This document shows, one piece after another, positions 13,190 to 17,874 of a stretch of 64,000 bases of DNA. Made by a program: the position numbers and the translations under genes. Where the stretch lies: NCBI RefSeq assembly GCF_013122565.1, contig NZ_CP053258.1, one strand, 5' to 3'. The number at the start of each line of letters is the position of its first letter. Position 1 is the stretch's first letter. Under the pieces are notes generated by a model, which was given only the letters and a program-made list of their open reading frames with translations, was not told where the DNA came from and did not search any database. The DNA is from Escherichia coli (GTDB lineage: Bacteria > Pseudomonadota > Gammaproteobacteria > Enterobacterales > Enterobacteriaceae).

Positions 13190-13481
13190 TATAAATTTCT
13201 CATTAAATCTGGATAAATAAATTGACGGCGGCATCGGTAATTTGAGATTCGTTATCATTAAAAAAGAATACAGAAAAATAAATATAAATTTGGTGAATGT
13301 TTTTGACATGATTAAATCCATTTTCTTTATTTTCTTCTGACATAATACGTTACTCCCTTTAATTCTTAACGATATGTTTCGCATTTTTCTTGAAACCTGC
13401 CTGTAACAGAATGTTAATAAGACATGATTGTTGTGGCAGGATCTGCAATAATTAACAATTATCCACTTCACAGAGAATGCT

Positions 13482-14153
13482 ATGCAGTACCCGATTAACG
13501 AGATGTTCCAGACCCTGCAAGGTGAGGGTTACTTTACCGGCGTCCCCGCCATTTTTATTCGTTTACAGGGATGCCCGGTTGGCTGTGCCTGGTGCGACAC
13601 CAAACACACCTGGGAAAAGCTTGAGGATCGGGAAGTCTCCCTTTTCAGCATTCTGGCGAAGACCAAAGAGAGTGATAAGTGGGGGGCGGCGAGCAGTGAA
13701 GACTTGCTGGCTGTCATTGGTCGCCAGGGATATACCGCGCGGCATGTGGTGATTACGGGGGGTGAGCCTTGCATTCATGATTTGCTGCCACTGACTGACC
13801 TGCTCGAAAAGAACGGTTTTAGCTGCCAGATCGAAACCAGTGGTACTCATGAAGTACGCTGTACACCGAATACCTGGGTTACCGTATCGCCAAAGCTGAA
13901 CATGCGCGGCGGCTATGAAGTGTTGTCACAGGCACTGGAGCGAGCCAACGAAATCAAGCATCCAGTGGGACGCGTACGTGATATTGAAGCACTGGATGAA
14001 CTTTTGGCGACGCTGACCGATGATAAACCGCGAGTCATTGCACTGCAGCCGATTAGCCAAAAGGATGATGCCACACGTTTGTGCATTGAAACCTGCATTG
14101 CGCGTAATTGGCGTTTGTCGATGCAAACCCATAAATATTTAAATATTGCCTGA
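13482..14153 (+). CDS. queE: 7-carboxy-7-deazaguanine synthase (radical SAM)
   Basis: 223 aa; CxxxCxxC-type cluster motif ([13 protein letters not shown]). Confidence 0.92.
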
Positions 14154-14160
14154 TTAAACA

Positions 14161-14490
14161 TTTATAAGTGTTATAAATGGGTGGAACCTGTAAAGAATTC
14201 CACTCATTTATATTGTTTGTCGCCTCTGAAAACCCCTCTTTTTTGCCCATCCTTGACTAATCATTATCATTCTCTACAAATTCTGTGGCGTTAATTTTTC
14301 GCTGGAGTGAAAATTATTGCGGTAAAGTTTGGTAGATTTTAGTTTGAATAGAGTTATTTTAAATATTTATCTTTTTAATCAATGGATTAAGTGCTCTTTA
14401 ACATAATGGATGTGTTGTTTGTGTGATCCTGTAAAGTTGTTAGATTGTGACTGGCTTAAAAAATCATTAATTAATAATAGGTTATGTTTA
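14161..14490 (+). promoter_or_regulatory. CRISPR leader (AT-rich), ending ...ctggcttaaaaaatcattaattaataataggttatgttta
   Basis: AT-rich block abutting the first repeat; the 3' end matches the E. coli type I-E leader terminus as I recall it. Confidence 0.7.
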
Positions 14491-14702
14491 GAGTTCCCCG
14501 CGCCAGCGGGGATAAACCGGCGATTATAGCGGACTTTCAAGAGAACAGTCTGAGTTCCCCGCGCCAGCGGGGATAAACCGTGGAAAATCACCGACAATAT
14601 TCGACATGGAGAGAGTTCCCCGCGCCAGCGAGGATAAACCGTTATCGGTCATCAACTATAGCGCGTATTTACTAAGTTCCCCGTTCCAACACGAATAATC
14701 CG
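14491..14702 (+). CDS. placeholder
   Basis: placeholder. Confidence 0.
14491..14702 (+). CRISPR. Type I-E CRISPR mini-array: 4 repeats (4th degenerate), 3 spacers of 32 bp
   Basis: Repeats GAGTTCCCCGCGCCAGCGGGGATAAACCG at 14491, 14552, 14613 (one G>A change) and a degenerate copy at 14674; AT-rich leader upstream. Confidence 0.93.
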
Positions 14703-14767
14703 ATAATATCGACGATACCAACCTAATATTATCAAATGTTAAAGGTTCTAATTTAAGAGGAAATTTA

Positions 14768-15031
14768 ATGTCTACGTTAATGGAAAAAGAATCTCTCCTG
14801 AATGGCGTGAGTCAAAATATTGCATTTTTATCAAATGTATCTGAAATGGTTTACAACTCTCAGAATGAAGAGTTGCAGTATGAAATATATGAGCTGGTGA
14901 GTTATAAAGATTATCTATACTCAACAGACCATGAACTTGTTGATTTTCAAGAGGGAGTATTACGATTTCAACAAATTAGAACAAAATACAGGCAAGAGCT
15001 AAAAGAACTCGGTTATCCTGTAGGTAATTAA
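14768..15031 (+). CDS. Hypothetical small protein (87 aa), no recognised family
   Basis: ORF preceded by AAGAGGA Shine-Dalgarno about 7 nt upstream of the ATG; AT-rich codon usage unlike flanking core genes. Confidence 0.5.
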   Translation: MSTLMEKESLLNGVSQNIAFLSNVSEMVYNSQNEELQYEIYELVSYKDYLYSTDHELVDFQEGVLRFQQIRTKYRQELKELGYPVGN

Positions 15032-15393
15032 GAAATATTGTCTTGATGGTGGGGAAACGTAATTTTTTATATTTTAAATATTAGATTAAAACAATAAATT
15101 AATATCATACTTTTATTTTATTCTCGAAAATGCCTAATTTCATTAAATACGTTGTCCTGTAAATGTAAACCGGGCATTTTTCCGCCCGGTCTCCCTCGAT
15201 TACGCTTCTGAGCAGGTCTCGAGCGAATTCACACTCTCCCGTTCAACTTGCATCACCAGTTGGTTAAATTCAGTCAAACTCTCGCTCATAATAATAATGT
15301 CGCAGTCGTCTTCCATGTCATGCCCCAGATATCCAGAACACAACACCCTAACATAGCGTTACTTAAGGGAAATTGACCGCCGACACACTCTTA

Positions 15394-15759
15394 TCATTCG
15401 CCGCGATAGATACAACCTGCGGTGCAGGTTTCTTTCACCATCACTGCACTTAATAGCGGCACAACGGGTTTAACCTGATCCCAAATCCATTTTGCTAAAA
15501 CTTCGCTGGTTGGGTTTTCCAGACCTGGAATATCATTGAGATAATGGTGATCGAGGCGCTCATAAGTTGGCTTAAACGCCGCTTTCAGTTCAGCGAAATC
15601 GATAATCCAGCCCGTATGCGGATCGACTTCCCCGGTAATTTCCAGTCGCACCATAAAGGAATGCCCGTGCAGGCGACCACATTTATGTCCTTCCGGGACG
15701 TGTGGTAAGCGGTGAGCGGCTTCGAAGGTGAAATCTTTAAATAACGTGGTGGACATCAT
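15394..15759 (-). CDS. queD: 6-carboxy-5,6,7,8-tetrahydropterin synthase
   Basis: ORF track 15394..15843; start at [19 protein letters not shown] gives about 121 aa; PTPS family with zinc-binding His motif. Confidence 0.9.
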
Positions 15760-16074
15760 AATTTCTCTACATGACGATAAAACCGCCGTAGAGTACCGGA
15801 AAGGCTGTTTTTTCGCATTATCTAAAACGACTTTGTTGCGCAAAATCGCTGATTTATCTTAATGATTGGCTAAATTCATTTGTTTTTCATTAGGTTGGTT
15901 AATCTATTTTGTTGTTAAAGACTATTGCTAAAACAGGTTAGTCGATTTGGTTATTAGTTATCGCTATCCCGTCTTTAATCCACACCGTTCACCCCGTTAA
16001 CCTTACCTTCTCTTCTGTTTTATGGGCGCTGACAGGGCGCAGAAACAGCTTTGCTTACTGGAACATAACGACGC

Positions 16075-17874
16075 ATGACGACACAGGTCCCACCTTCCGC
16101 GTTGCTTCCGTTGAACCCGGAGCAACTGGCACGCCTTCAGGCGGCCACGACCGATTTAACTCCCACCCAGCTTGCCTGGGTTTCTGGCTATTTCTGGGGC
16201 GTGCTCAATCAGCAGCCTGCTGCGCTTGCAGCGACGCCAGCGCCAGCCGCAGAAATGCCGGGTATAACTATTATCTCCGCCTCGCAAACTGGCAATGCGC
16301 GCCGGGTTGCTGAAGCATTACGCGATGATTTATTGACGGCAAAACTGAACGTTAAGCTGGTGAACGCGGGCGACTATAAATTCAAACAAATCGCCAGCGA
16401 AAAACTGCTCATCGTAGTGACGTCAACGCAAGGGGAAGGGGAACCGCCGGAAGAAGCCGTCGCGCTGCATAAGTTCCTGTTCTCCAAAAAAGCGCCAAAG
16501 CTGGAAAACACCGCGTTTGCCGTGTTTAGCCTCGGCGATAGCTCTTATGAATTTTTCTGCCAGTCCGGGAAAGATTTCGACAGCAAGCTGGCGGAACTGG
16601 GCGGTGAACGCCTGCTCGACCGTGTCGACGCCGACGTTGAATACCAGGCTGCTGCCAGCGAGTGGCGCGCCCGCGTGGTTGATGCGCTTAAATCGCGTGC
16701 GCCTGTCGCGGCACCTTCGCAATCCGTCTCTACTGGCGCGGTAAATGAAATCCACGCCAGCCCGTACAGCAAAGACGCGCCGCTGGTGGCGAGCCTCTCT
16801 GTTAACCAGAAAATTACCGGGCGTAACTCTGAAAAAGACGTTCGCCATATCGAAATTGACTTAGGTGACTCGGGCCTGCGTTACCAGCCGGGTGACGCGC
16901 TGGGCGTCTGGTATCAGAACGATCCGGCACTGGTGAAAGAACTTGTCGAACTGCTGTGGCTGAAAGGCGATGAACCTGTCACCGTCGAGGGCAAAACGTT
17001 GCCTCTGAACGAAGCGCTACAGTGGCACTTCGAACTGACCGTCAACACCGCCAACATTGTTGAGAATTACGCCACGCTTACCCGCAGTGAAACACTGCTG
17101 CCGCTGGTGGGCGATAAAGCGAAGTTACAGCATTACGCCGCGACCACGCCGATTGTCGACATGGTGCGTTTCTCTCCGGCGCAACTGGATGCCGAAGCGC
17201 TGATTAATCTGCTGCGTCCGCTGACCCCGCGCCTGTATTCCATCGCCTCCTCGCAGGCGGAAGTCGAGAACGAAGTACACGTCACCGTTGGTGTGGTGCG
17301 TTACGACGTGGAAGGCCGCGCCCGTGCCGGTGGTGCCTCCAGCTTCCTCGCGGATCGTGTGGAAGAAGAGGGCGAAGTCCGCGTATTTATCGAACATAAC
17401 GATAACTTCCGTTTGCCTGCTAACCCGGAAACCCCGGTGATTATGATTGGCCCCGGTACCGGCATCGCGCCGTTCCGTGCCTTTATGCAGCAACGCGCCG
17501 CCGACGAAGCGCCGGGTAAAAACTGGCTGTTCTTTGGCAACCCGCACTTTACGGAAGATTTCCTCTACCAGGTGGAGTGGCAGCGCTACGTCAAAGAGGG
17601 CGTGCTGACGCGTATCGATCTTGCCTGGTCGCGCGACCAAAAAGAAAAAGTTTATGTACAAGACAAACTGCGCGAACAGGGCGCGGAGCTGTGGCGCTGG
17701 ATCAATGACGGTGCCCACATTTATGTCTGCGGCGACGCTAATCGCATGGCGAAAGACGTTGAGCAGGCACTTCTGGAAGTGATTGCCGAATTTGGTGGCA
17801 TGGACACCGAAGCGGCGGATGAATTTTTAAGTGAGCTGCGCGTAGAGCGCCGTTATCAGCGAGATGTCTACTAA
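16075..17874 (+). CDS. cysJ: Sulfite reductase [NADPH] flavoprotein alpha subunit
   Basis: 599 aa; flavodoxin plus FAD/NADPH reductase domains. Confidence 0.96.

Follow-up and report, generated by a model that had tools for sequence, protein, structure and literature searches.

EzeT is the zeta toxin of Escherichia coli (WP_000212693.1), reportedly described by Rocker and Meinhart in 2015. An antitoxin domain occupies its N-terminal 82 residues; it silences the C-terminal UDP-GlcNAc kinase in cis, and also in trans when made as a separate protein (PMC4803016). A published suggestion holds that EzeT arose through the fusion of a bicistronic operon. EzeT toxicity depends on low temperature. Antitoxins also occur as orphans, chromosomal homologs that lack a cognate toxin and for which neutralization of related toxins in trans has been proposed; E. 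coli has many of them (PMC10790755). One function proposed for them in the literature is anti-addiction. The ccd locus of Erwinia chrysanthemi, for example, reportedly protects against the ccd of the F plasmid (Saavedra De Bast and colleagues, 2008). Our search of the literature found no description of an orphan from the EzeT/zeta antitoxin family.

The 64-kb stretch of E. coli DNA analyzed here (the window) carries an 87-codon ORF whose product RefSeq labels 'hypothetical protein' (exact protein WP_171460453.1). We are confident that this product is an orphan homolog of the EzeT-family antitoxins, a statement of identity alone. The features of the locus are collected in Table 1; the region is 99.5% identical across 6.3 kb to assembly GCA_052983875.1.

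Table 1. Features of the antitoxin locus, in window coordinates.
Feature	Position	Strand	Details and basis
CRISPR mini-array, type I-E-like, 4 repeats and 3 spacers, last repeat degenerate	14491..14702	+	65 nt 5' of the ORF
Shine-Dalgarno sequence AAGAGGA	14755..14761	+	6 nt 5' of the ATG; read directly
87-codon gene, free-standing EzeT-N/epsilon-type antitoxin homolog	14768..15031	+	ATG at 14768, TAA at 15029-15031, stop included; ORF list
Predicted helix 1, residues 4-27	14777..14848	+	AlphaFold model
Predicted helix 2, residues 34-52	14867..14923	+	AlphaFold model
Predicted helix 3, residues 60-81	14945..15010	+	AlphaFold model
C-terminal tail GYPVGN and stop codon	15011..15031	+	Common LGYP motif begins one residue earlier
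AT-rich non-coding spacer after the gene	15032..15169		~77% conserved with group-B loci (L002/L010 alignment)
ygc island deletion scar	15170..15316	-	ygcE 3' end 15170-15256, ygcN 5' end from 15288; comparison with K-12 and L012

The assignment draws on several searches with the product. Residues 1-79 match positions 1-79 of the 308-position profile PHROG 25145 (E 9e-20), and tblastn located a protein of 308/310 aa adjoining lysC in an E. coli chromosome. This protein is EzeT, whose published place is next to the aspartokinase gene. BLASTP aligned EzeT residues 1-78 with the product at 53% identity over 78 aa (E 7e-26); EzeT residues 103-284 constitute the Zeta_toxin domain, whose relatives in the PDB are PezT and zeta. 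The product thus belongs by sequence to the family of the EzeT N-terminal antitoxin domain (~80 residues), the only family that the profile search recovers. HMMER, run exhaustively against 1.84 billion representatives, returned a narrow set comprising EzeT fragments and two free-standing proteins, P0011 (88 aa, 66% identical to the product and sharing its LGYP tail) and P0013 (82 aa, 56%). This family has no Pfam model and is captured by PHROG 25145. Pfam gave only a sub-threshold match to DUF5800 (E 0.15) and none to Epsilon_antitox, which places the product outside the Epsilon antitoxins. Scans with NCBIfam and PADLOC returned nothing useful, Pfam and NCBIfam revealed no helix-turn-helix, DNA-binding or other recognizable domain, and a sequence search of the PDB with the family profile gave chance matches only. 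Full-length EzeT is itself missing from representative-based searches because the 90%-identity protein collection files it under a representative LysC (449 aa, the neighboring aspartokinase), presumably via a chimeric sequence.

The likeness to the EzeT N-terminal domain spans the whole domain and includes the same length, an invariant N-terminal motif and a predicted three-helix bundle. The window protein differs in being unfused, in carrying an extra LGYPVGN tail, in having no toxin gene beside it and in lying at the queE-queD locus rather than in the neighborhood of lysC. The fold that AlphaFold predicts for this small acidic protein is a bundle of three helices resembling the domains with which PezA and epsilon bind their toxins. 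A confident fused model (pTM 0.87) lends indirect support to a possible neutralization of a zeta-type kinase, and a Foldseek search against the PDB and the viral library BFVD returned no significant match. Within the family, conservation is highest in the N-terminus together with helix 1 (MxTLMEKxxLLNGxxQxIAxLS), with per-segment identities of 59-93% and invariant columns, and this motif persists in the relatives from Neisseria and Pasteurellaceae. The C-terminal toxin-binding domain of PezA and the epsilon protein, from the PezAT and omega-epsilon-zeta systems, are only ~10% identical to the window protein, without detectable sequence similarity, and the window protein lacks the helix-turn-helix repressor domain of PezA. 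In epsilon/zeta and PezAT, helix 1 covers the P-loop.

The closest sequence relatives are P0011 and P0013, free-standing small proteins of mobile elements and putative antitoxins. Each lies directly 5' of a separate Zeta_toxin gene (245 or 266 aa) that it overlaps by 11 nt, the pairs being P0011/P0069 in L005, where the toxin ATG falls within the last codons of the antitoxin, and P0013/tox6 in L006; a Salmonella pair bears the consecutive accessions WP_254909313/WP_254909314. These unfused two-gene versions of EzeT occupy enterobacterial mobile elements (L005 2071-3064; L006 6001-7039), one module lying near type IV secretion and Toprim genes, and the second sharing a plasmid leading region with ArdA, ParB and PsiA. 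Whereas these genes of conjugation or plasmid leading regions overlap functional-looking toxin genes, the gene in the window has lost its toxin, is chromosomal and keeps to a fixed site. The fused form is also found in Pseudocitrobacter. Taken together, these modules, the EzeT fusion and the solo ORF show that the family exists in three forms: two-gene module, fusion and solo gene. The unfused two-gene relatives support the published fusion origin of EzeT.

Further family members come from other lineages. In a Conchiformibius MAG (L023 3001-3640), between ispH and a heptosyltransferase gene, a complete 81-aa antitoxin homolog precedes a zeta-toxin gene in decay, which is frameshifted and truncated and whose P-loop is interrupted by a stop ('LLGG*PGAGKS'). 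This locus is a natural intermediate in which the toxin has been lost and the antitoxin retained. A solo homolog in Neisseria (L021) sits in housekeeping surroundings, flanked by thiC and a GTPase gene. A 68-aa member (MATLMEKDSLINGISQ...) is encoded on small tet(B) plasmids of Pasteurellaceae that have no zeta toxin (L004 988-1194; L018, L019, L020), where it adjoins a VbhA-family antitoxin gene, and one Neisseria scaffold has an identical copy; the match of these 68-aa proteins is marginal (E 9e-3), yet the shared MATLMEKD motif identifies them as true distant members. All of these solo copies retain the N-terminal MATLMEKD-L.

At the window locus the toxin is gone. Searches by tblastn with EzeT, tox5 and tox6 at very permissive thresholds detected no kinase remnant in 15032-15393, and no kinase sequence elsewhere in the window or in the L001 and L002 loci. 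When the L005 operon was compared with the window by blastn, similarity was confined to 14767-15018 and stopped where the toxin start codon would fall, inside the last codons of the antitoxin. The locus therefore presents an antitoxin homolog in an intact ORF with no cognate toxin, that is, an orphan. It is not EzeT proper, a protein of ~308 aa with a fused C-terminal Zeta_toxin kinase, as the ORF ends at 87 codons; nor is it a complete type II epsilon/zeta-like module, in which a co-oriented Zeta_toxin gene (PF06414) would be adjacent, the next gene being queD on the opposite strand.

Substitution patterns and frame conservation indicate that the ORF is a real gene maintained by selection. 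When the local 501 nt were shuffled 5,000 times, an ATG-initiated ORF of at least 87 codons arose in just 25 cases. All informative allele pairs have a Nei-Gojobori dN/dS of 0.11-0.18 (bootstrap upper limits 0.26-0.51), with dS reaching 0.66-0.75 between the two allele groups; for calibration, the same ratio in intact EzeT is 0.19-0.24 for the antitoxin domain and 0.07 for the kinase domain. All alleles at the queE site have 87 codons, some truncated alleles also occurring, and the whole family keeps the start codon along with the N-terminal M[A/S]TLMEK[D/E]. Among E. coli carriers the ORF is 98.5% identical, against an average of ~95% for the 501-nt stretch that includes its flanks. The initial annotation had proposed a small gene worth checking, with a strong Shine-Dalgarno sequence, an AT-rich composition unlike its neighbors and a charged, Tyr/Glu-rich product that it left unassigned, and had named loss of the reading frame in related genomes as grounds for abandoning the proposal. 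The conserved frame and its fixed position after queE bear that proposal out, and the other particulars hold as well. The Shine-Dalgarno sequence stands as described, the group-B allele (L010) having GGAG at the equivalent position. G+C content is 33% in the ORF compared with 50-55% in queE and 52-62% in cysJ, the adjacent non-coding DNA and CRISPR leader being as AT-rich as the ORF (31-37%). The product is acidic (net charge about -7), Glu making up 12.6% and Tyr 9.2% of its residues.

It could be argued that the gene is an inert relic, a still-open but functionless remainder of a decayed module. The loss of the toxin, the existence of truncated alleles and the rarity of the ORF in E. coli (8 of 5,426 complete genomes by sensitive blastn, leaving 5,418 without it) would all fit, as would the expression signals: a scan for promoters and terminators found no plus-strand site near the ORF, with counts no higher than in shuffles, and a promoter-like site at 14243-14270 was at chance level only. 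An Rfam scan of 14100-15500 detected no RNA family. However, stops would soon arise in an unconstrained frame of 87 codons at 33% G+C, and the frame has instead stayed constant at low dN/dS across dS of up to 0.75. The constraint is at least that on the antitoxin domain of intact EzeT, and the ORF is more conserved than its flanks. The gene is also common in E. fergusonii, where the index of the assembly collection lists the main allele, P0019, in 472 blocks. We therefore consider an inert relic quite unlikely.

The ORF has a single fixed chromosomal site, directly 3' of queE, which occurs in four settings: E. fergusonii, with the order queE-array-ORF-queD; E. coli lacking the ygc island; E. 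coli with the island, in the order queE-ORF-ygcE; and E. coli in which the island has decayed. Of the eight E. coli carriers, six have ezeT as well, a gene present in 1,434 of the 5,426 genomes overall (p 0.006, uncorrected for phylogeny), and the names attached to the EzeT cluster in the protein collection are those of E. coli and other genera only. In the same genome pairs, dS of the ORF (~0.7) is 5-7 times that of adjacent queE (0.10-0.14; queE 13482-14153), so that the ORF alleles either diverged anciently or were separately acquired. Ancient polymorphism, separate acquisitions and diversifying pressure are candidate causes of this gap.

Selection that persists without a neighboring toxin, together with the great divergence of the allele groups, also raises the possibility that a former antitoxin was co-opted for a task that has nothing to do with zeta toxins, such as binding another P-loop enzyme or serving as a small adaptor. 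The solo homologs among Neisseria housekeeping genes and on Pasteurellaceae tet(B) plasmids would accord with such a change of role. However, the segment retained is the N-terminus and helix 1, precisely the part best conserved with toxin-linked relatives, the product has no recognizable domain for a new activity, and nothing points to any specific alternative partner. We regard co-option as unlikely.

The ORF lies on the same strand as the CRISPR mini-array and directly 3' of it, as the initial annotation had pointed out, and transcription from the array leader would read towards the ORF, such that leader-driven transcripts could include it. It was on this proximity that the initial annotation based its mention of regulators or anti-defense remnants next to CRISPR arrays. 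We found no detectable link between the ORF and CRISPR. In group-B E. coli (L002, L010) the ORF is found at the same site although not a single repeat is present; these strains keep the end of the leader (L010 3718-4001), which therefore directly abuts the antitoxin gene. The relatives all occur in toxin-antitoxin contexts, tblastn against phage genomes found no DNA or protein match, and the lack of a helix-turn-helix, of any PADLOC match and of a significant match in the viral fold library further sets the product apart from anti-CRISPR proteins, Aca proteins and CRISPR regulators. It is accordingly very unlikely that the gene is a CRISPR-linked factor, whether one that regulates the adjacent array or a remnant of an anti-CRISPR or anti-defense system. 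The general direction of the earlier guess was nonetheless roughly right, given the origin of the protein in a toxin-antitoxin module.

The initial annotation had also offered that the ORF might be a remnant of the island that K-12 carries at this position, and in this strain the island is indeed missing from the interval that separates the ORF from queD. Of that island the window keeps ~57 nt from the end of ygcE (within the match at 15170-15256) and ~29 nt from the start of ygcN, ~30 nt apart; these ends mark the scar of a ~10.6-kb deletion (ygcNOPQRSUW-yqcE-ygcE) ~140-260 nt 3' of the ORF, and the E. fergusonii scar has the same structure. We reject an origin in the K-12 ygc island, because K-12 has no counterpart of the ORF, the ORF stands beside the full island in L002 and L010, and the scar lies outside the ORF; the chance that the ORF is an island fragment is negligible.

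The surrounding interval is itself variable. Identity to K-12 is 95.5% left of the array (13400-14579, queE side) and 98.5% right of the scar (15288-16100, queD/cysJ side), a mosaic which suggests that a recombination boundary may lie within the interval. Where K-12 has yqcG, in the interval from queE to ygcG, the window has a 46-aa ORF (13203-13343, minus strand) in which no LemA similarity was obvious by eye; E. fergusonii and some E. coli have at that position a 200-aa LemA gene and extra TPM-domain genes, and in strain 13E0767 RefSeq calls the equivalent stretch a frameshifted pseudogene.

On balance, we lean towards reading the gene as an orphan zeta-family antitoxin, descended from a two-gene module that lost its toxin, and actively neutralizing zeta toxins in trans. 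A two-gene antitoxin/zeta-toxin module, of a type still carried by conjugative elements, would have inserted 3' of queE; the toxin gene would then have been lost completely, the antitoxin gene being kept intact by purifying selection. The likeliest activity of the protein would be to bind zeta-type UDP-GlcNAc kinases and block their nucleotide-binding cleft. Its targets may be zeta toxins arriving on plasmids or integrative elements, in which case it would serve anti-addiction or immunity. Alternatively, it may act on the resident EzeT kinase domain once this has been freed from its own N-terminal domain.

It is tempting to speculate further that selection actively maintains the solo antitoxin for immunity, as a chromosomal 'vaccine' protecting E. 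fergusonii and some E. coli lineages from post-segregational killing or abortive lysis by the zeta toxins of conjugative elements, or that it resets the cold-dependent lytic switch of resident EzeT. This more specific proposal is tentative, and we would not call it probable.

In summary, a 'hypothetical protein' of E. fergusonii and some E. coli now has a well-supported homology assignment and a testable function, and a CRISPR false lead is removed, as the gene shows no link to the array. The EzeT antitoxin domain, known only within a fusion, exists also as a separate gene in two-gene modules and in toxin-less solo copies, which offer natural material for asking whether orphan antitoxins protect against related mobile toxins. 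If the immunity proposal is true, the divergence of the alleles (dS far above that of queE) would reflect diversifying pressure to match different toxins. Moreover, the gene would then document, alongside the Conchiformibius locus and the relatives in two-gene modules, a full series leading from the two-gene module either to fusion, as in EzeT, or through toxin decay to the solo antitoxin.
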